A stretch of 64,000 bases of DNA, taken from assembly GCF_024502345.1 (NCBI RefSeq), contig NZ_JALDNN010000001.1; one strand, written 5' to 3'. The position numbers and the translations under genes are program-made. Numbering within the stretch: the stretch's first letter is position 1; each line of letters begins with the position of its first letter. This DNA comes from Escherichia coli. Lineage in GTDB: Bacteria; Pseudomonadota; Gammaproteobacteria; Enterobacterales; Enterobacteriaceae. Below the pieces are notes generated by a model, which was not told where the DNA came from, ran no database searches, and saw only the letters and a program-made list of their open reading frames with translations. Of the stretch, positions 10,307 through 64,000 are shown piece by piece.

Positions 10307-11710
10307 GTGTCACTTTCGCTTTGGCAGCAGTGTCTTGCCCGATTGCAGGATGAGTTACCAGCCACAGAATTCAGTATGTGGATACGCCCATTGCAGGCGG
10401 AACTGAGCGATAACACGCTGGCCCTGTACGCGCCAAACCGTTTTGTCCTCGATTGGGTACGGGACAAGTACCTTAATAATATCAATGGACTGCTAACCAG
10501 TTTCTGCGGAGCGGATGCCCCACAGCTGCGTTTTGAAGTCGGCACCAAACCGGTGACGCAAACGCCACAAGCGGCAGTGACGAGCAACGTCGCGGCCCCT
10601 GCACAGGTGGCGCAAACGCAGCCGCAACGTGCTGCGCCTTCTACGCGCTCAGGTTGGGATAACGTCCCGGCCCCGGCAGAACCGACCTATCGTTCTAACG
10701 TAAACGTCAAACACACGTTTGATAACTTCGTTGAAGGTAAATCTAACCAACTGGCGCGCGCGGCGGCTCGCCAGGTGGCGGATAACCCTGGCGGTGCCTA
10801 TAACCCGTTGTTCCTTTATGGCGGCACGGGTCTGGGTAAAACTCACCTGCTGCATGCGGTGGGTAACGGCATTATGGCGCGCAAGCCGAATGCCAAAGTG
10901 GTTTATATGCACTCCGAGCGCTTTGTTCAGGACATGGTTAAAGCCCTGCAAAACAACGCGATCGAAGAGTTTAAACGCTACTACCGTTCCGTAGATGCAC
11001 TGCTGATCGACGATATTCAGTTTTTTGCTAATAAAGAACGATCTCAGGAAGAGTTTTTCCATACCTTCAACGCCCTGCTGGAAGGTAATCAACAGATCAT
11101 TCTCACCTCGGATCGCTATCCGAAAGAGATCAACGGCGTTGAGGATCGTTTGAAATCCCGCTTCGGTTGGGGACTGACTGTGGCGATCGAACCGCCAGAG
11201 CTGGAAACCCGTGTGGCGATCCTGATGAAAAAGGCCGACGAAAACGACATTCGTTTGCCGGGCGAAGTGGCGTTCTTTATCGCCAAGCGTCTACGATCTA
11301 ACGTACGTGAGCTGGAAGGGGCGCTGAACCGCGTCATTGCCAATGCCAACTTTACCGGACGGGCGATCACCATCGACTTCGTGCGTGAGGCGCTGCGCGA
11401 CTTGCTGGCATTGCAGGAAAAACTGGTCACCATCGACAATATTCAGAAGACGGTGGCGGAGTACTACAAGATCAAAGTCGCGGATCTCCTTTCCAAGCGT
11501 CGATCCCGCTCGGTGGCGCGTCCGCGCCAGATGGCGATGGCGCTGGCGAAAGAGCTGACTAACCACAGTCTGCCGGAGATTGGCGATGCGTTTGGTGGTC
11601 GTGACCACACGACGGTGCTTCATGCCTGCCGTAAGATCGAGCAGTTGCGTGAAGAGAGCCACGATATCAAAGAAGATTTTTCAAATTTAATCAGAACATT
11701 GTCATCGTAA
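10307..11710 (+). CDS. dnaA: chromosomal replication initiator DnaA
   Basis: Translation matches DnaA (AAA+ Walker [11 protein letters not shown]); start set at the GTG giving MSLSLWQQ (467 aa), 12 nt inside the track start. Confidence 0.9.
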
Positions 11711-29423: not shown

Positions 29424-30136
29424 CTCTTTTCCGGGTGGAGTCGCCGTAAATGGTACTCCACCTGGTATTCGCTGGCATTTCTGAACATCACTGAATAATT
29501 CAAAAACTCCCCGCTCTCACTATATGACAACGAGGTGATCCGCAGCAGTGGCGTGTGTTCCGCTACCTTCATTTGCCGCGCCAGCAGTCTATCGGCGAGC
29601 ACCGGCGTCAGGCTTTCATAATTACCGCCAATCAAAATCCCACACTCTTGTTCAATATATTCAAACTTCGACCCTTCCAGATGTTGCAGCGAAAGGTTAC
29701 GGAACAGTTTTACCGGCATATAGCTGTCTTCCAGCATCAGCGGTTTCCCTTCCACAAAACGAACGCGACGGGAGAAGTAGATCTGCTCGTTGATTTGAAT
29801 CCGTAACTGGCTGGCAATGGCCGGAGGCGCAGGCATGATTTCAAAAATCAGCACCTGGCTGGTGACCGTTTTTCCCTGCCGTTTTAACACCTCCACCAGC
29901 CCGGTCAGGCTGGCGGTTTGATGCAGTACATCTTTACGCACCAGGTAAGTGCCGCTGCCGTGGCGGCGGACCACCAATCCCCACGCTACCAGCAGGTCAA
30001 TGGCTTTACGGATGGTCATCCGCGATACCGCAAATTCTTCCGCCAACTTTTTTTCACCGGGAAGAAGGCTATTTAGCGTGAAATCTGCGGAATTAAGTCG
30101 AATTCTTAACCGCTCCGCAATGCTTTTGTAGATCAT
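29420..30136 (-). CDS. yidP: GntR-family transcriptional regulator YidP
   Basis: Start at [13 protein letters not shown] (ATG 30134-30136); HTH plus UTRA-like C-terminus. Confidence 0.8.
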
Positions 30137-30431: not shown

Positions 30432-33752
<3,321 letters not shown>

Positions 33753-33918: not shown

Positions 33919-35634
33919 ATGAATTCGTTACAAATCTTGAGTTTTGTCGGTTTTACGCTGCTGGTGGCGGTGATCACCTGGTGGAAGGTCCGCAAAACAG
34001 ATACCGGATCGCAACAAGGCTATTTTCTTGCCGGACGTTCACTAAAAGCGCCGGTTATTGCCGCTTCGTTAATGCTAACCAACCTTTCCACGGAACAACT
34101 GGTCGGCCTTTCCGGGCAGGCCTACAAAAGCGGCATGTCGGTGATGGGCTGGGAAGTGACTTCAGCGGTGACGCTGATCTTCCTCGCGCTAATCTTTTTA
34201 CCGCGCTATCTGAAGCGCGGCATTGCCACCATCCCCGATTTTCTGGAGGAACGTTATGATAAAACGACGCGTATTATCATCGACTTCTGCTTCCTCATTG
34301 CCACCGGCGTCTGCTTTCTGCCGATTGTTCTCTACTCCGGCGCGTTGGCGCTCAACAGCCTGTTTCACGTCGGGGAATCGCTACAGATTTCTCACGGTGC
34401 GGCTATCTGGCTACTGGTAATTTTGCTTGGTCTGGCGGGAATTTTGTATGCGGTGATCGGCGGACTGCGCGCAATGGTAGTGGCGGACTCCATCAACGGT
34501 ATTGGGCTGGTTATCGGCGGGTTGATGGTGCCGGTATTTGGCCTGATCGCGATGGGCAAGGGCAGCTTTATGCAGGGCATTGAGCAACTCACCACCGTTC
34601 ACGCCGAGAAATTAAACTCAATCGGTGGCCCGACCGATCCCTTGCCGATTGGCGCGGCATTTACCGGTTTGATTCTGGTGAACACCTTTTACTGGTGTAC
34701 AAATCAGGGCATCGTGCAACGCACGCTGGCGTCAAAAAGCCTGGCGGAAGGGCAAAAGGGGGCGCTGTTAACGGCGGTGCTGAAAATGCTCGACCCGCTG
34801 GTACTGGTGCTGCCAGGGTTGATTGCGTTTCATCTGTATCAGGATTTACCGAAAGCCGACATGGCCTACCCGACGCTGGTCAATAACGTTCTGCCAGTGC
34901 CAATGGTGGGTTTCTTCGGCGCGGTGTTATTTGGTGCGGTGATCAGTACCTTCAACGGCTTTCTGAATAGCGCCAGTACGTTATTCAGTATGGGTATTTA
35001 CCGTCGCATCATTAACCAGAATGCCGAGCCGCAGCAGCTGGTCACCGTCGGGCGCAAATTTGGTTTCTTTATCGCTATCGTTTCGGTGCTGGTCGCGCCG
35101 TGGATCGCCAACGCGCCGCAGGGGCTGTATAGCTGGATGAAACAGCTCAACGGCATTTACAACGTGCCGCTGGTTACCATCATCATTATGGGCTTTTTCT
35201 TCCCGCGCATCCCGGCGCTGGCGGCAAAAGTGGCGATGGGGATTGGCATAATCAGCTACATCACCATCAACTATCTGGTGAAGTTCGACTTCCATTTCCT
35301 CTATGTGCTGGCCTGTACGTTCTGCATCAACGTGGTCGTGATGCTGGTGATCGGTTTTATCAAACCGCGCGCCACGCCGTTCACCTTCAAAGATGCGTTT
35401 GCGGTGGACATGAAACCGTGGAGAAACGTCAAGATCGCGTCAATTGGCATCCTGTTCGCGATGATTGGCGTCTATGCCGGGCTGGCTGAATTCGGCGGCT
35501 ACGGTACGCGCTGGTTAGCGATGATCAGTTATTTCATTGCCGCCGTAGTGATTGTCTACCTGATTTTTGACAGCTGGCGGCATCGTCACGACCCAGCCGT
35601 AACCTTTACTCCCGACGCGAAGGATAGCCTATGA
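33919..35634 (+). CDS. yidK: sodium:solute symporter family transporter YidK
   Basis: 571-aa polytopic ORF, divergent from yidL. Confidence 0.85.
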   Translation: MNSLQILSFVGFTLLVAVITWWKVRKTDTGSQQGYFLAGRSLKAPVIAASLMLTNLSTEQLVGLSGQAYKSGMSVMGWEVTSAVTLIFLALIFLPRYLKRGIATIPDFLEERYDKTTRIIIDFCFLIATGVCFLPIVLYSGALALNSLFHVGESLQISHGAAIWLLVILLGLAGILYAVIGGLRAMVVADSINGIGLVIGGLMVPVFGLIAMGKGSFMQGIEQLTTVHAEKLNSIGGPTDPLPIGAAFTGLILVNTFYWCTNQGIVQRTLASKSLAEGQKGALLTAVLKMLDPLVLVLPGLIAFHLYQDLPKADMAYPTLVNNVLPVPMVGFFGAVLFGAVISTFNGFLNSASTLFSMGIYRRIINQNAEPQQLVTVGRKFGFFIAIVSVLVAPWIANAPQGLYSWMKQLNGIYNVPLVTIIIMGFFFPRIPALAAKVAMGIGIISYITINYLVKFDFHFLYVLACTFCINVVVMLVIGFIKPRATPFTFKDAFAVDMKPWRNVKIASIGILFAMIGVYAGLAEFGGYGTRWLAMISYFIAAVVIVYLIFDSWRHRHDPAVTFTPDAKDSL

Positions 35635-40274: not shown

Positions 40275-40420
40275 TGCCGGAAGGGATTACGTGCGAACTG
40301 TAACCCTCTCCCTGAAAGGGCGAGGGGGAAACCACCGTTCCCTTTCAGAAAATGAGCTAAACATTGCACGGGACGGTCCCCTCGCCCCTTTGGGGAGAGG
40401 GCTAGGGTGAGGGGCACAGG
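40275..40420. repeat. GC-rich inverted-repeat intergenic element (family unassigned)
   Basis: ccctctccctgaaagggcgaggggg (about 40305-40329) and its near reverse complement cccctcgcccctttggggagaggg (about 40377-40400) flank a roughly 50-bp spacer. Confidence 0.4.
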
Positions 40421-40477
40421 CAGCGCAGGTGCAAACATTCTGCTGGTAGAAGAAGCCCCCAACTCCAACCCGCACGC

Positions 40478-55928: not shown

Positions 55929-56563
55929 TTTTCCCTCTGCATACTGTTTTGTCGTTTATGTATGCAGGCATGATAGCAAAAATGGCGAGGATGGCTCTGT
56001 TTGCGCCACGCCGATTTTTCTTAGCCCAGACTGGTGAGCTAAATATCTTTAATAAACAGCAGGCAAATCATCGCAATACCCAACATCCCTATCGCCAGCC
56101 AGAACAACGCATGGTAGCTCCAGATTTCAACCATAATTCCGTCAACAGAGCCGGCGATAATCCAGCCGACGCGTGAAGTATTTGCATATAACGTTGTCGC
56201 AGAGCCTATTTTTTCAGGCATCAAGTCCTGAAAATAAAGCATGCCGATACCACAGAGAATACCAAGGAAGATGGCATTAAGAATTTGCAATTCCAGCTCA
56301 ACCGCCGGAGTCGTCGCCATGAGTACGCTGGCGTAAAAACACATTCCACTCACGATAGCAATGAGCATTAATAGTCGCTTGCCAATACGTTTCATGTAAT
56401 AGCCTGCGATTAACATCATCGGAATTTCCAGACCGGCAGCGATACCAATCATTTCTCCAGCCAGTTTATCGGTTAGATGCAGTTCATCAATAATAAATAG
56501 CGGCATATTTATCATGTAGAGATTATTCGCCGCCCACATCATTGAACAAACCACAAAAAGTAG

Positions 56564-57785
56564 CTGTAGATTCAATCTGTCAATGCAACACCCCTTTCAA
56601 TTATCTCTTTCGGTGTTTTGAACTTCAGTGTCTTTCTCGGTCTGTTGTTTAGCTGAGCAGCAACCAGATCTAGTTCATGTTGAGTATATTGGGCAAGACA
56701 TGTCTTTTTAGGAAAGTACTGCCGAATTAGCCCATTTGTGTTCTCATTTGTTCCCCGCTGCCAAGGACTCTGAGGATCGCAGAAGTAAACTTTAACGCCG
56801 GTGCTGACAGTAAATTCTAGATGTCTGGCCAGTTCCATTCCTCTGTCCCATGTCAGTGATTTTCTGAGTTCTGACGGTAAACTCAGGAATTTGTCGGTAA
56901 GAGCCTGATTTACTGAGACAGAATCTTTGCCCCTGAGTCTAAGGATGATCGTATAACGTGATTTTCGGTCTACAAGTGTGGCTATATGAGAGTTTTTTGT
57001 ACCTGAGACTAAATCGCCCTCCCAATGCCCCAGAGAGCGTCTGTTATCGATATTTCGGGAACGTTCGTGAATTGGTGTTCCGTTCACTATGTTAATCGTA
57101 CCTCTTTCGCCTTTGCGGGTATGACGCCTGCCATGGCGAAGGCTATGCGACCGTCGCAGATGCTGTATATTCAGGTGGTGTAGCGCTTCACGGCTACGAA
57201 AGTACAGCGTTTTATAAATTGTCTCAGGTGATATTCGCAGCGTTTTTTGACGTGGTTTTGTTCGCCTTAACCATCCTGATATTTGCTCTGGAGACCATTT
57301 CATCTCCAGCTTTTCCAGAACAAGCTTTCGCAATGGTAAATTTTGATCCAGTAAGCACGGTTTTGGCCTTTTCGCCATTCTGTTGGCTCGGTTATTAGCA
57401 TCAACAGCTTTGTAATAGCGTCTGCCCCGATTACGCTGAACTTCACGTGAGATCGTCGAAGGACTGCGATTCAGCGCAGTAGCTATCGCACGAATGCTCA
57501 TTTTGGCTGACAAACCAGCTCGTATCTCCTCGCGCTCAGACAGTGTCAGGTGAGCTACAGCCCGCTTACGCTCATGGGGTTTTATGCCGCCAGTATCCCT
57601 TAACATAGTGAAGATCGTTCCGGGTTTTGAACCCAGGATATTCGCTATTTCACTGAAGCCTGTTCCGTTCTTCCATAGTTCAAAAACAGAGGCTTTTTCC
57701 TCTGCTGTAAATGTTCGTCTCATTCAAAAAACCTCCGCAACCCCATGTTTTCACATAACTGTTGCGTTGACCAATTGAATCTACA
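56564..57785 (-). mobile_element. IS30 insertion sequence (complete, about 1.22 kb)
   Basis: Terminal inverted repeats (tgtagattcaatctgtcaatgcaacacccc at one end, tgtagattcaattggtcaacgcaacagttatgtgaaaacatgggg in reverse complement at the other) flanked by a 2-bp direct repeat gc. Confidence 0.9.
56572..57723 (-). CDS. insI: IS30 transposase
   Basis: 383-aa ORF with N-terminal HTH and C-terminal DDE integrase fold, fills the IS30 body. Confidence 0.9.
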   Translation of the reverse strand: MRRTFTAEEKASVFELWKNGTGFSEIANILGSKPGTIFTMLRDTGGIKPHERKRAVAHLTLSEREEIRAGLSAKMSIRAIATALNRSPSTISREVQRNRGRRYYKAVDANNRANRMAKRPKPCLLDQNLPLRKLVLEKLEMKWSPEQISGWLRRTKPRQKTLRISPETIYKTLYFRSREALHHLNIQHLRRSHSLRHGRRHTRKGERGTINIVNGTPIHERSRNIDNRRSLGHWEGDLVSGTKNSHIATLVDRKSRYTIILRLRGKDSVSVNQALTDKFLSLPSELRKSLTWDRGMELARHLEFTVSTGVKVYFCDPQSPWQRGTNENTNGLIRQYFPKKTCLAQYTQHELDLVAAQLNNRPRKTLKFKTPKEIIERGVALTD

Positions 57786-58882
57786 GCCGCGTATCTCGCT
57801 TTCTATGGATGGAGGGTAAAATTTCTACGGGTTGGGTAACGACAGGAATATTTCTTTGTATTGATGGCAAAAACAACCAGACTATCAGCCCGCAAACAAC
57901 AAATGCGATGGCAGCGGTGAGATACATCACTTTAAAACTAAATCCCATTGCCAGTTCATAAGCGAGCGGTGGCCCGATAACCCAGGCAAGCGAGATCTGA
58001 GCACGTAAAAATGTACTGAACATGACCGTCTCACGGCCTGTTCTATCGGCGTGTTCACGGGCGAGGGCGAACATTTGCGGGTTTGCGGTGGAAGCAAAAC
58101 TACTCAGAAGTACGCCCGTTGAGAGGAGAATGAAGTAGTTGCGATTCCACGCAAAAAGCGTGCAGGCCAGCACTCCAAATAAGCAACATAGCAGAATCAG
58201 TAATTTACGGTCGCCTTGTTTATCGGAGTGCCTTGCCAGAAATTGACTGACCAGAATTCCCATAATAGCGCTACCGGTGAAGAAAAAACCTACCATTATA
58301 GGACGGGCTTTCAGTTCATCTGCGAGGAATATACTTAGGGTAGGAGTCTGAAGAGCGCCCGCAATACCCGTCAGAAAGGCGACAAGTAAAAATGCCGCGG
58401 CAGTGAGATCAAGTATTTTTGATGGAGTGGTAGCCGTTTTTTGCATTCTTCTGAATCACCGGGCGAAAAAATATAACTGAGTTACAAATAAGTACCAGTC
58501 GAATGAGTATTGTATTAAGAATTTTTGAGTATCGCTGATACAACCAGAAAGCAATGCTAGCGCAATATTATAGGGCCAGCAATTGAGATTATTAGCAAAA
58601 GCATGTTAAGAATTAATTACCGAATTTATATATTAATTATAGTAAGGCAATGAGCTATTTTTGATAGTAAAAATAAAACAAGTTGATTTGATATATTAAA
58701 TGAACAAATTAATCTTGATGGCAGTCTGATTATTGGTGAAGTTTATAGTCAGTTTTTTTCGCCAGCGGTTAAAGAAATAGAATAATCGTATAAAAAAGGG
58801 TGTTCTGGGGCGAGTAAAACAACATCTTCACCTTAATGGCGATACAGTTGGCTGAGAGTCAGCAGGGGGGCAAATCACCTGC

Positions 58883-59003
58883 AAATAAACACGGCGCATA
58901 CTGGCGTGAATATCGCGGATGCGTTCGAGGACAGAAGAACCGACAGGCGGATTCTTCAGCCGCTCATCGTCCATCACAAAACCTTAGACCAGGTATTCCT
59001 GAA
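58883..59003 (-). pseudogene. fragment of a RhuM-family gene (paralogous remnant)
   Basis: About 120 bp with clear nucleotide similarity to 59745-59893 of the intact gene, including a 34-nt identical core; carries a deletion and an in-frame stop. Confidence 0.55.
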
Positions 59004-59214
59004 GCCGATTGAATATTGAGCAGTAGAAAATATCTGGATTGACAGTATTACAAGGGGTTGGAGAACGTCAGGAGAGGCATTTTGGCGATCACAGGAGTCG
59101 CATTCAGCGGCTTGATCTGTTGAATTTAGTGGTTTTTATCGTGTTGGATTTTTGTTGGTGCCCCCTATTATGCCCCCAAATGATTTTGCTTGTGGTGGTT
59201 ATAGGCATTCAGAG

Positions 59215-60252
59215 CTACTTTTTAGGCTCTGTTTTCCATTGTAGCAAACCGGCGATATCCTTCTCACCTTCGGCTTCTTTTAAGCGCCGTTGTTGTTCAG
59301 CAAACTGACCATACTCCGCCTGCGCTTTTTCATCGGCCATTTTCTTACTGATTTTACCTGCGCCTTGCAAAACCTCACGGTCGTTAAATTGCAGGAACTG
59401 ATCCAGCTTATCCTGCCAGTCGCGTAAAAAGACCTGCTGACGACGACGGGCCTGATCCTCGGCAAAATCCAGCCACATGTTAACTACGCGGTTAAGCTCG
59501 CTGACTTCATCCTGAGTGAGATAATTTTTTGCCACCGTCACGTCACCCTTACGCACCTCTTCACCTTTATAGCTGGTCAGCCCCATATGTGGCTGGCTGG
59601 CGTCAGCACGCAGATGAATGAGTTCAGCGGCGGTATGTCCGGTACAGGCAAAATGTAACTTGTTCTGGATGGTTTGAAAAAACTGCGTGGTTTCTTTCAG
59701 TGATGGTTGATAGTCGGCGGCTAACGCAAAGATCTCTCGCACCCGTAAATAAACCCGACGTTCGCTGGCGCGAATATCGCGGATACGCTCCAGCATCTCA
59801 TCGAAATAGTCGGGCACAGCCGATGAACCCACGGGCGGGTTCTTCAGCCGCTCATCGTCCATCACAAAACCTTTGATCAGGTATTCCTGGAGCGTCTGGG
59901 TTGCCCACTGGCGGAACTGCGTGCCGCGAGGGGAGCGAACGCGGTAGCCGACAGCAAGAATAACAGGCAGGCTGTAGTGAAGCCTGTTGCGGCTTACCTG
60001 ACGGCCACCTTCCTGTTGAACTTGTAAGTAAGACTTACAGGTTGCGTTTTGTTCAAGTTCGCCTTCTTCATAGATCGCTTTAATGTGCTGTGTAACTGCC
60101 TGGGGAGTGATCTGATAAAGGTTTGCGATGGTTGCCTGAGGGAGCCATAGTGTCTCTTGCTCAAAGCGGCATTCAACACGAACTTCACCGTCATCGCTGG
60201 CAAACATAACAAATTCGCCTGCCGGGGATTGGGTTAAGTATTTATCTGTCAT
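59215..60252 (-). CDS. RhuM-family protein
   Basis: 345-aa ORF (MTDKYLTQS...) with RhuM-family conserved blocks (VISVGYRV-like, RGTQFRQWATQ, LIKGF..DDERLK). Confidence 0.65.
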   Translation of the reverse strand: MTDKYLTQSPAGEFVMFASDDGEVRVECRFEQETLWLPQATIANLYQITPQAVTQHIKAIYEEGELEQNATCKSYLQVQQEGGRQVSRNRLHYSLPVILAVGYRVRSPRGTQFRQWATQTLQEYLIKGFVMDDERLKNPPVGSSAVPDYFDEMLERIRDIRASERRVYLRVREIFALAADYQPSLKETTQFFQTIQNKLHFACTGHTAAELIHLRADASQPHMGLTSYKGEEVRKGDVTVAKNYLTQDEVSELNRVVNMWLDFAEDQARRRQQVFLRDWQDKLDQFLQFNDREVLQGAGKISKKMADEKAQAEYGQFAEQQRRLKEAEGEKDIAGLLQWKTEPKK

Positions 60253-60339
60253 GCCGTCTCCGCTTATATCTGACTCGCAATGCTGTAATCCGCTTAGTAT
60301 GCCAGAAATTCTTGGTGAAGCTTATTACGCAGATAGCGT

Positions 60340-61173
60340 TTATTTTGCGGGCAGCGCTCCCGGATAATGCTTTGCCACAATGTCATTCATCTTCTCCACC
60401 AGGTCCAGACGCTTAAACGTGATATGCCCGTTGCCTTTCTGAAAGTAGCGAATGGTGAACATATCGTCTTTAAAGACCTGTTGATGCGGGTTATCGCGAA
60501 CAAAATTCATAAATCGGATAGAGACATCATGCCGGTTGTCAGGAATGGTTTTGCCATCCAGCAGGTAAAGCATCCGTTCCAGATCGGCGAGCTGATCGCG
60601 CCGCCAGCCCCAGTTCAGACTGAAGCCCCATCTGTCATGCTTCACCAGATTGTTGACGATAATCTTCTTACCGAAGTAACAGGGATTATTGGTTTTGTAG
60701 TCCCAGCTTAACCCTTTAAATACATTGATAATCCCACGTTCGAAAACATCCTGTTTATTGTGGTGGAGTTGTTCAAAGGTACTTAGGATGTTGGCTTCAC
60801 TGATGGCCGGAAGATCGCCCTCTTCGAGGTTTTTAGCCCACTGGCTGCGGGCTTCGGCATCCATCAAGGTCAACATCCCGGACTTCAGCATGAGATCGCG
60901 CCAGATACTGCGATCGATATTGCAGGTAATCACCGGCATCGCTTTATCGACTGGTTGCATCAGCCAGCAGTCAAAGGAATGGCCCTGTCGCATCGCCCAA
61001 TGCTCCGCCACATCACCACCGATGCTGGAGGTTAGCCGTGAGATATCATCAAGCTTATGGATCAGGATTTCTATCAGGCTCAGCGCAGCATCACGCCCTG
61101 TGACGATGCGTTCTATACTGGTTGAGCAAATTAGCTCATTATGATCGGTTAAAACTTCAGCTTCTGTTTGCAT
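60340..61173 (-). CDS. DUF4942-like protein
   Basis: 277-aa ORF from ATG 61171-61173 (MQTEAEVLTDHNE...); family call from memory of proteins encoded downstream of CbtA-family toxins. Confidence 0.5.
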   Translation of the reverse strand: MQTEAEVLTDHNELICSTSIERIVTGRDAALSLIEILIHKLDDISRLTSSIGGDVAEHWAMRQGHSFDCWLMQPVDKAMPVITCNIDRSIWRDLMLKSGMLTLMDAEARSQWAKNLEEGDLPAISEANILSTFEQLHHNKQDVFERGIINVFKGLSWDYKTNNPCYFGKKIIVNNLVKHDRWGFSLNWGWRRDQLADLERMLYLLDGKTIPDNRHDVSIRFMNFVRDNPHQQVFKDDMFTIRYFQKGNGHITFKRLDLVEKMNDIVAKHYPGALPAK

Positions 61174-61287
61174 GATATTTTGTCCGTAAAAAGCAAACAC
61201 GCCCGCCGGGAGTGGCAGGCGCATTATGCAATGAGTAAATAAGGAAGACAGATCGGGAATGTAATTCGGGAAGGAGGCTCGCAAGAT

Positions 61288-61620
61288 TCAGCGTGTCGAA
61301 AGATTATGGCCTTGTCGTAACAACCCCATTGCCTGTCGCGCCCGCAAAATGTCTACAGCCCGCAGATAAGGCGATTGTTCCTGCCAGCTAAATCCTTTGC
61401 GATCGATGCGAACGAGTTCGTATTTTTCCACCAGAAAGTTCACGGCATCGGCAAGAGTAACGCCTGCGTTGATATGTTCCTGAATGACTGTTTCATCGCA
61501 GAATGGCGTGTCACTCAGGGCCAGGCCATAGTGTTGTGCAAGTAGACGGGTCAGTAACATCTGCCAGACGGCCACAGGCGACGGGCATGGCTTCGCTATG
61601 TGTGCGTCCTCCTTTCGCAT
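61288..61620 (-). CDS. CbtA/YeeV-family toxin homolog with atypical N-terminus, no adjacent antitoxin gene
   Basis: 110-aa ORF whose body ([28 protein letters not shown]...AVNFLVEKY...DILRAR) aligns to the YeeV/YkfI/YpjF family; first 12 residues differ and overlap the upstream ORF. Confidence 0.65.
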
Positions 61621-62329
61621 TGCGCCCGTTCAGACCACCTTTAATCAGGTTCTCCTGAATGCGCTGATAGGTTGTCCAGAGGTCACCGGACTCATCCTGC
61701 CAGCGACGGGGAGCCAGTAGCTGAGATTCCGTCACCGGCTGATGCTCTTCGCCAAAACGATACGTCAGCGCAGCTTGCGCCAGCGCCGCCTGTGCTGGTG
61801 GAGGTAGCATGAGTGACTGCATGGCATCGCGCTTCTCTTCTACGCGGTCAAATATCCCCAGCACTTCGTAAGCCCCTTCAATGACCTTCTCTACTACGTT
61901 GCCTTTATGCGGGACACGCACCTCCCCGAACGACTCGCCGCAAATCAACCCATTTTGGCAAACAGATCTGAATAAACCCGGCAGCATTTGATATGAACTG
62001 GAGCCGTCATGGCTGTTAAGCAGGATTATTTCTGGCACTTGTTTGCCAGTAATCTGGCCTTCTCGGCGTAGGCGCAGCATGTGTTTGGTGTGCTCACGCT
62101 TGCTCTGGTCCCGCACTCGGGTCTGGCAGGCAAAGAACGGTTGAAAGCCTTCACGCTTCAGGTTATCGAGCAGAGTGATTGTCGGAATGTAGGTATAGCG
62201 GTCACTGCGGGATTCATGTTTGTCTTCGCTGAAGACGCTGGGCACATAGTGCGCCAGCTCCTCGCGGGTTAACGGGCGGTCACGGCGCACAAGATTGGTA
62301 GCACCAAAACGGCTGGCTAAACGGGTCAT
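61511..62329 (-). CDS. DUF932-like protein (YfjQ/YafZ-like), C-terminus overlapping the toxin ORF
   Basis: 272-aa ORF from ATG 62327-62329 (MTRLASRFG...) with ggag RBS; last 37 codons overlap the toxin ORF in another frame. Confidence 0.55.
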
Positions 62330-62399
62330 AGGCGACTCCTTTAAAAATGGGCATAAAAAAGCCACCCCGAAGGATGGCCTGGATTGAAAGGCTGGATTA

Positions 62400-62849
62400 T
62401 TAAGGTGAAACAGAAGGGTGTATCTGCGATGCAGTCTTTTCTGAATCTGGTATCGGCAATGCAGATAGTTCGGCAGGACTAAGCTTTCCTGCGCGGTAAA
62501 GTTGCAGTTTCACCAGAATCGGCGCTTTTTGCGACTGAAGGTAACTCAGGCACCATTCCCGCTTCAGGACTATCCTGACCGGGGCAGGCAAAAGCTCATA
62601 TGCTTTGCTAAAAACGACTTCAACAAAAGCATCATCACTCAGTTTATCCTCGGCAATATTCAACAGACCATTGATGACAATATTTTCCAGTAACAGCCTG
62701 TATTTGTCAGAACCCGTTACCGAAGCTTTAACCGTGTTTTCCGGTAAGTGTTCAGAAGATGTGTCATGATTTTCTGTGTGTGCTTTTCTGCGTGAGAAAT
62801 TCAGCTTTTCTGTAAGGCTACGAAATTTTCCTGTGCTATTTTCAGACAT
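62400..62849 (-). CDS. hypothetical protein (149 aa)
   Basis: ORF from ATG 62847-62849 (MSENSTGKF...) with agga RBS about 9 nt upstream; co-oriented 70 bp upstream of the DUF932-like gene; no family recognised. Confidence 0.45.
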   Translation of the reverse strand: MSENSTGKFRSLTEKLNFSRRKAHTENHDTSSEHLPENTVKASVTGSDKYRLLLENIVINGLLNIAEDKLSDDAFVEVVFSKAYELLPAPVRIVLKREWCLSYLQSQKAPILVKLQLYRAGKLSPAELSALPIPDSEKTASQIHPSVSP

Positions 62850-63092
62850 CGTAATTTTATCCTGTGGCCTCCGCGTCTTGCCATCAGGCAAGTACGGCGA
62901 GTTTTTTTATCGCTTTAATCAGGCTAAAGGTGGTCAAACCTGCACCTAGAGCCCTGACCGTGACCGAATGGCTTCGCATCAACGTAACCCCCATTACGCA
63001 CAGGACAAGTTGCCACGTACAATCAGGCCATGGGGGGTCATTACCCGGCATGTCCGTAACCACTTCGCTTTGACTATGCACGGAAAACACCT

Positions 63093-63736
63093 CTACTTGT
63101 AGCCATTAGGGAGCCACTGGCCCTGTTTGCGAATATCAGTAATAATGCCCCCCTCTTTGACCGAAATGGTACGCCAGCTTGGTTCTTTGCTGGATGCATT
63201 CCCATAGGTATACCCGACAGTCATTGTCAGGTTTTCGCCTGAAGTTGTGGTGAGATCAGCCTCATACTTAGCTTCGGTATTTTGTTTGCGAATAAAACGC
63301 ACGGTGTTGATTGCAGAACAGCGAATACTGCTTTTCGCATATTCAAAGGAATTGTTAGCCATTTGGCATCCGTCGTTTTTAATTTCATCCGTCAGGTTTG
63401 CAGAAACATTAAAGTTCTTAGGTACAGGGGCAAATTTAGCCATGTCGTTTCGCATAGTCGGTGGATCTGTCTGAAGCACAAGATAAACAGGACAATCTGA
63501 TTTGCCTACTTCACACGCTTTTGCCACGTAATCACGTACTGGCCATCCAGCATTACCGAAATATTCCGCACCACTTTCATCTTTGCATTGTGACCAGGTA
63601 GCTTTTTTCCCCATCATAATGCCGTCTACCAGCACACAGGTGACGGCTTTTACAGGCTCACCATCCCACCGGACTGCATCAAAGGGCTGAATGCCTGTAT
63701 GGTTCACGTCAAGCGTGTAGGCCTGTGGATTCCTAG
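63093..63736 (-). pseudogene. hypothetical protein, 5' end truncated by IS5
   Basis: Reading frame open from the IS5 junction to stop at 63093; the first 23 residues of the track ORF are encoded by the IS5 terminus; no family recognised. Confidence 0.45.

Positions 63737-64000
<264 letters not shown>

Follow-up and report, generated by a model that had tools for sequence, protein, structure and literature searches.

The window analysed here, i.e. the whole 64,000-nucleotide stretch of Escherichia coli contig NZ_JALDNN010000001.1 (assembly GCF_024502345.1), is chromosomal and runs from upstream of dnaA, which starts at 10307, via uhp, ade, nepI, nlpA, and yicL to setC. Beyond setC, in the interval between this gene and selC, lie an intact gene of the RhuM family (rhuM) and a 130–165 bp fragment of a second RhuM gene, which ends 210 bp from the rhuM stop codon. 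Both the gene (WP_045265419.1) and the pseudogene (yicT) are already publicly annotated, and as such the arrangement is ordinary. The original prediction took the pair as the outcome of an earlier duplication, or of recombination between two RhuM-type genes, at the junction. The selC gene, which encodes tRNA-Sec, is a textbook integration hotspot, and a relic of its 3′ end separates the two copies as the right attachment site (attR) of a genomic island. We find that the gene and the fragment very probably reached selC in two independent arrivals, and not through local duplication. The features of the junction are collected in Table 1.

Table 1. Features at the setC-selC junction, with positions in the window.
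Feature	Position	Strand	Basis and context
AT-rich backbone spacer, setC to pseudogene	58447-58839		Essentially identical to HS, one mismatch
RhuM pseudogene fragment (yicT orthologue)	58840-59005	minus	Codons 121-186; backbone flank of selC, outside the island
attR, relic of the tRNA-Sec (selC) 3′ end	59083-59100		TGGC[GGAA deleted]GATCACAGGAGTCG; island/backbone boundary
Island terminal non-coding segment	59101-59214		attR to rhuM stop; alignable with FORC_028 and ATCC 11775 island ends, not with the empty site
Intact rhuM, 345 aa	59215-60252	minus	Open reading frame and Pfam; terminal attR-proximal gene of the selC island
DUF4942 gene	60340-61173	minus	Next gene inward of rhuM; region 99.7% identical to G3/10, where it is annotated by the Prokaryotic Genome Annotation Pipeline (PGAP)

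The product of the 345-aa open reading frame (ORF) was predicted to belong to the RhuM family, and a hidden Markov model search bears this out. The Pfam profile Virulence_RhuM (PF13310) matches it at E = 1.3e-115, with model positions 1–250 of 252 aligned to residues 70–323, i.e. over the full length of the profile. In G3/10 the protein is WP_045265419.1, named "virulence protein RhuM" by PGAP, and an identical protein is present on 210 public contigs. A partial S. enterica protein shares 98% identity with it across the first 139 residues, and its 90% cluster includes uniformly similar members from Serratia, Klebsiella aerogenes, Hafnia, E. albertii, and Citrobacter. Overall, the RhuM family exceeds 25,000 clusters at 50% identity, and 25,567 representative relatives were counted at E up to 1e-3. 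The PHROGs and NCBIfam profiles gave no match for RhuM, and a scan for promoters and terminators around rhuM found none above shuffled expectation. A homologue search with the N-terminal 139 residues, aimed at other C-terminal fusions, returned short RhuM fragments only and was uninformative.

Near-full-length rhuM is found in 917 of 5426 complete E. coli genomes, 2 of which carry the window allele at ≥99% identity. When this allele is compared codon for codon with that of ATCC 11775, 178 of 1038 positions differ (83% identity; 880/1027 in a local alignment). Codons 99–345 contain 71 nucleotide differences and just 6 amino-acid changes, giving a synonymous divergence (dS) of 0.56, a nonsynonymous divergence (dN) of 0.012, and a ratio of 0.022, which indicates strong purifying selection. 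Judged from these codons, the intact rhuM is a functional gene that selection strongly preserves. Codons 31–98 (59959–60162) show 54% nucleotide identity between the two alleles and differ at 37 of 68 residues, compared with 90% identity in the remainder of the gene. Because the low identity is confined to these codons, the rhuM allele is a mosaic, and the segment, which forms the winged helix-turn-helix core, looks like a swapped recognition cassette.

The neighbouring fragment had been described as a remnant of an internal rhuM segment, about 210 bp past the 3′ end of the gene, with a deletion and a stop codon, and the description is correct in its coordinates as in its marks of decay. A Smith-Waterman alignment of 58876–59005 with 59740–59893 has 113/130 identities and 24 gapped positions, and its score of 112 compares with 19.3 ± 2.3 (maximum 30) in 200 shuffles. 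With tblastn, RhuM residues 121–186 fall on 59004–58840 (E = 8e-17), with an in-frame stop replacing K127, one deletion of 8 residues, and another of 3, and the fragment is thus a decayed RhuM gene. It also has a counterpart in K-12 MG1655, where the pseudogene yicT (b4653) is identical to 58843–58974 at 132 of 132 positions, and the interval 58440–59100 as a whole matches K-12 at 659/665. This sequence identity, together with the conserved position between setC and selC, identifies the fragment as yicT; PGAP labels it a "RhuM family protein" pseudogene.

The fragment is widespread in the species. The segment 58447–59100 (setC-proximal spacer, fragment, and selC start) is present in at least 3602 of the 5426 complete E. 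coli genomes, usually at 95–99% identity or higher. Most of the genomes that carry the fragment have no intact rhuM and, in such strains (e.g. HS), the fragment adjoins an intact selC. The same stop and deletions are present in the K-12 and HS fragments, and so the decay predates the island insertion of this strain; for the same reason, yicT probably decayed before most E. coli lineages split. A fragment that is 95–99% conserved across most E. coli might have been retained for a function of its own, e.g. as a small RNA or small ORF, or in the regulation of setC or selC. We consider this highly improbable, since such identity is ordinary for the E. coli backbone and the fragment is a RhuM frame broken by a stop and two deletions. 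Moreover, 58300–60400 has no Rfam match at E up to 1, and ATCC 11775-type strains do without the whole setC-yicT segment.

The distribution of the fragment also bears on a local origin, in which the neighbouring rhuM would have been duplicated in tandem and one copy would then have decayed. The two copies do have the same orientation, lie ~860 bp apart in register, and are 87% identical over 130 bp. However, thousands of genomes without an intact rhuM, K-12 and HS among them, carry the fragment with its stop and deletions unchanged, and the selC attR relic separates the copies. Nor is the fragment closer to its neighbour (113/130) than to the other allele, the ATCC 11775-type rhuM (118/130). 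When assessed by mutual closest relationship and co-occurrence, the two copies do not qualify as tandem gene duplicates, and we give this origin almost no credence.

The junction itself was defined by aligning the window with G3/10 and with HS, an empty site in which setC, yicT, and the intact tRNA-Sec gene follow in succession. Starting in setC and continuing across the fragment, the window differs from HS at only two single bases as far as ...AGGCATTTTGGC[GGAA]GATCACAGGAGTCG, which represents the last ~22 nt of selC on the window strand. Past this point HS runs into the tRNA gene, whereas the window and G3/10 enter unrelated sequence before they reach rhuM at its 3′ end, 115 bp inside attR. 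The selC relic, 18 nt long, has lost 4 nt in the window and 1 nt in G3/10. Because identity to the empty-site strains ends at the relic, the intact rhuM is the terminal gene of an island that integrated at selC. According to these alignments, the sequence to the right of attR, starting with rhuM, is island, and that to the left, including the fragment, is backbone.

A comparison of neighbourhoods across E. coli selC islands, suggested along with the original prediction, finds the same junction elsewhere, the breakpoint being identical in G3/10, in the selC island of FORC_028, and at the direct repeat of ATCC 11775. Relative to these three genomes and HS, the window thus has both a direct repeat at the distal boundary and a breakpoint at that repeat, as in a tRNA-integrated island. 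A breakpoint and repeat at a tRNA 3′ end are the classic signature of site-specific integration. A 14-mer of the relic has a single exact match within the whole window, and it still matches only once there when up to 2 mismatches are allowed, i.e. no older attR copy lies to the left of the fragment. A search of the window for tRNA genes found none.

The position of the breakpoint is also relevant to whether homologous recombination between a resident rhuM and one on an incoming island made this junction, with rhuM serving as an anchor for island exchange. RhuM recurs at selC in layers, i.e. as yicT in most strains and, in the ATCC 11775 type, as a second fragment and an intact gene, and the ATCC 11775 and window alleles are mosaic, both of which would fit such exchange. 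By contrast, backbone and island meet at the 3′ end of the tRNA gene, 115 bp away from the intact rhuM, the breakpoint recurs in a different island that carries no rhuM, and no hybrid rhuM was seen across the junction. We therefore regard recombination at rhuM as very unlikely to have produced the junction. Of the origin put forward in the original prediction, what stands is that two RhuM-type genes met at this site. Their origin by duplication or recombination is contradicted by the 132/132 identity to yicT, the presence of the fragment in strains without intact rhuM, the attR between the copies, and a breakpoint that is not inside rhuM.

Two independent arrivals would accommodate these observations in the following order. 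The locus is the selC integration hotspot viewed from its setC side, and yicT would be the remnant of an earlier RhuM gene immediately downstream of selC. Later, an island carrying an integrase would have inserted site-specifically into the 3′ end of selC, displacing the original tRNA 3′ end to 59083–59100, where it became attR, and bringing its own intact rhuM as the outermost cargo gene.

A second lineage provides another view of the hotspot. In ATCC 11775 and many uropathogenic (UPEC) and avian pathogenic (APEC) E. coli strains, selC is flanked at a distance of 52 bp by an intact 345-aa rhuM, after which comes the degenerate repeat seen in the window, likewise with its 4 nt deleted. No gene other than this rhuM lies between selC and the repeat, these strains have neither setC nor yicT, and the allele differs from that of the window mainly in codons 31–98. 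Just outside the direct repeat, ATCC 11775 carries a second, different RhuM fragment (L002 7723–7926), which covers residues 166–245 (E = 8e-10). The layering of RhuM copies at selC implies that RhuM arrived there at least twice in each lineage. The ATCC 11775 islet appears to be an island stripped to rhuM alone and, if this is true, it would suggest selection for rhuM retention.

The backbones of ATCC 11775 and HS cease to be homologous 29 bp upstream of yicL and become so again 15 bp 3′ of selC, such that the entire yicL-selC interval is variable. One lineage has setC and yicT in this interval, and the other has a hypothetical gene, its own RhuM fragment, the repeat, and rhuM. When 55929–59100 is compared with L002 6935–9214, the whole interval, including setC, is unrelated sequence in ATCC 11775-type strains, and setC itself may be part of an ancient insertion at selC.

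The complete arrangement seen in the window (58450–60340) is present in 2 of the 5426 complete E. coli genomes, G3/10 and CFSAN051542, at 99.6–99.7% identity. In G3/10, a related strain, the island spans 27.6 kb from attR to an intact selC. An Arm-binding ORF and a tyrosine integrase lie beside tRNA-Sec, at an end whose counterpart is outside the window, and are followed inward by a 5′-nucleotidase and a type I restriction-modification system. Further inward are the TerY-P anti-phage system, an IS5-like insertion sequence (IS) element, and YfjJ-like and helix-turn-helix (HTH) genes, and then a distal module of DUF932, RadC, DUF987, YeeU, CbtA, and DUF4942, before RhuM and attR. By its gene content, this is an integrative island of the defence type, in which rhuM occupies the outermost position.

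To our knowledge, the RhuM family has no known biochemistry. The AlphaFold2 model of the protein (mean predicted local distance difference test score, pLDDT, of 83) has an N-domain (residues 13–126) of three strands, a helix-turn-helix, a hairpin, and helices, i.e. a winged helix, and an all-helical C-domain (residues 146–341). Codons 31–98 correspond in this model to the helix-turn-helix and the beta-hairpin "wing" of the N-domain. The near-invariant polar residues of the C-domain are R161, S163, E164, D180, Y181, Q196, N197, E210, R215, K242, N243, Y244, and E265. The top structural matches of the model are DNA-binding proteins, namely DdrC in the PDB and Bro-N, KilA-N, and antirepressor proteins in BFVD. 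The BFVD matches have Foldseek E-values of 3e-5 to 3e-2, yet Pfam yields no match to these domains. Searches of PDB sequences with the single protein and with a profile gave nothing better than E = 0.4–1.

The winged-helix N-domain and the structural matches would be compatible with the suggested DNA-binding fold, while a comparison with DinD, a Bro-N protein, speaks against a Bro-N or KilA-N match. DinD had been raised as a homologue by a CDD note on "dinD + RhuM" (PMC9881135) and by a common R-x-x-R-x-x-E-[KR]-R motif. BLASTP between DinD and RhuM gives E = 0.089 over 16 residues, and the hhalign probability is 0.2% with a single sequence and 0.1% with an alignment of 18 sequences, which is narrow (≥74% identity). 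Homology to DinD was consequently rejected at this sensitivity.

Several lines of evidence relate the window protein to phage defence. The PADLOC profile PDLC04852, which represents the single-gene defence candidate PDC-S05, matches RhuM across residues 2–342 at E = 1.2e-171. A cold-seep PDC-S05 gene with a RhuM domain lowers the plating of T7 and T5 ~1000-fold, and that of T4 ~10-fold, in E. coli B (Nat Commun 2026; PMC12881386). RhuM genes are also 14-fold enriched beside targets of programmed inversion, mostly hsdS (Milman et al. 2023; PMC9881135), and occur in restriction-modification and PrrC operons, where they replace DOC toxins and are often fused to DOC (Anantharaman et al. 2013; PMC3710099). 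In MB98, a 72%-identical rhuM closes a type I operon of hsdM, hsdS, hsdR, two hypothetical genes, and rhuM in another mobile region (L006 8949–17916), and this operon agrees with the published association of RhuM with restriction-modification.

The family name, taken from Salmonella pathogenicity island 3 (SPI-3) at selC, would instead suggest a virulence factor, and RhuM could also be a protein-modifying toxin of the Fic/Doc type. In favour of the latter, Anantharaman et al. (2013; PMC3710099) proposed a toxin role on the grounds that RhuM stands in for DOC in restriction-modification and PrrC neighbourhoods and is frequently fused to it. The Fic/Doc-like fold that the original prediction raised was, however, not found; neither a Fic/Doc (Fido) profile match, among Pfam profiles, nor a Fido fold with the HxFx(D/E)GNGRxxR motif, in comparisons of the predicted structure, was recovered. 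We consider a virulence or Fic/Doc-type role unlikely, and on the strength of profile, context, and literature we judge it reasonably probable that RhuM acts in phage defence, most likely as a single-gene anti-phage protein.

How it would do so is more speculative. The N-terminal winged-helix domain might recognize nucleic acid or a phage factor, and the conserved all-helical C-terminal domain might be the effector. We propose this pairing of a winged-helix sensor with a helical effector tentatively. An equally tentative proposal is that RhuM could represent a mechanistically new kind of anti-phage protein that acts alone, with an exchangeable winged-helix recognition cassette and a near-invariant helical effector domain. 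If this were true, the repeated arrival of rhuM at selC and its survival as the sole islet gene in ~900 E. coli genomes would reflect selection for defence. RhuM is a very large family under a misleading "virulence" name, and recent evidence ties it to phage defence. Natural E. coli controls are at hand, i.e. K-12 with yicT only, the rhuM-only islet of the ATCC 11775 type, and the island-borne allele of the window strain.

Some findings weigh against this overall account of arrival and defence. The only PDC-S05 member assayed in the literature is a distant, cold-seep gene (PMC12881386). The identities of 118/130 and 113/130 lie too close together to tell which allele the fragment descends from. 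In addition, the integrase end and selC lie outside the window, so that the full structure of the island is inferred from G3/10, and the window departs from G3/10 inward of the junction through a 1.3-kb deletion, 94% identity over 61597–63732, and an IS5-like element.

These departures can be described in detail. Identity to G3/10 is 99.7% at 57785–61598 and falls to 94% at 61597–63732. The 1.3-kb deletion, at 61597/61598, removes the first 10 codons of CbtA, all of the YeeU antitoxin, DUF987, RadC, and the 3′ end of DUF932. What remains is a chimeric 110-aa CbtA ORF (61288–61620), with no antitoxin gene, and a DUF932 ORF (61511–62365) whose C-terminus is altered. From 63733 to 64000 the window contains an IS5-like (ISKpn26-type) element that is inverted compared with G3/10, and ~5 kb of G3/10 sequence is missing between. 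The low identity, the inverted element, and the missing ~5 kb indicate that the island is mosaic or rearranged in the window strain.

Other differences lie on the backbone. An IS30 element at 56565–57784, with a 383-aa transposase ORF (56572–57723) and terminal inverted repeats TGTAGATTCAAT..., sits inside setC and splits it into 56039–56564 and 57785–58446, while setC is uninterrupted in G3/10. At ~32631–32648, ~490 bp of G3/10 are missing from the window (L007 22264–22754, in a gene annotated as 6-phospho-alpha-glucosidase), and smaller indels relative to G3/10 occur near 29882–29955, 34925–35082, and 40287–40459.

Compared with known systems, the fragment is placed and oriented with respect to setC and selC just as yicT is in K-12. 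It differs in that K-12 yicT abuts an intact selC, whereas in the window an island has been inserted and the 18-nt selC relic alone remains beside it. The selC islands of G3/10 and FORC_028 have the attR breakpoint and the distal gene module in common with the window, and their terminal non-coding segment is related. The FORC_028 island, however, ends with DUF4942 and has no rhuM, while in the window and G3/10 rhuM lies between DUF4942 and attR; the same breakpoint without the gene makes rhuM an optional terminal cargo, and not a fixed part of the island. With RhuM of Salmonella SPI-3 (PF13310), the window gene has in common a full-length family match and an association with selC. Unlike SPI-3, the window island is a defence-type integrative element, and its context implies no virulence role. 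Finally, the window RhuM resembles PDC-S05 through its profile match, and the assayed member of that candidate family carries a RhuM domain.
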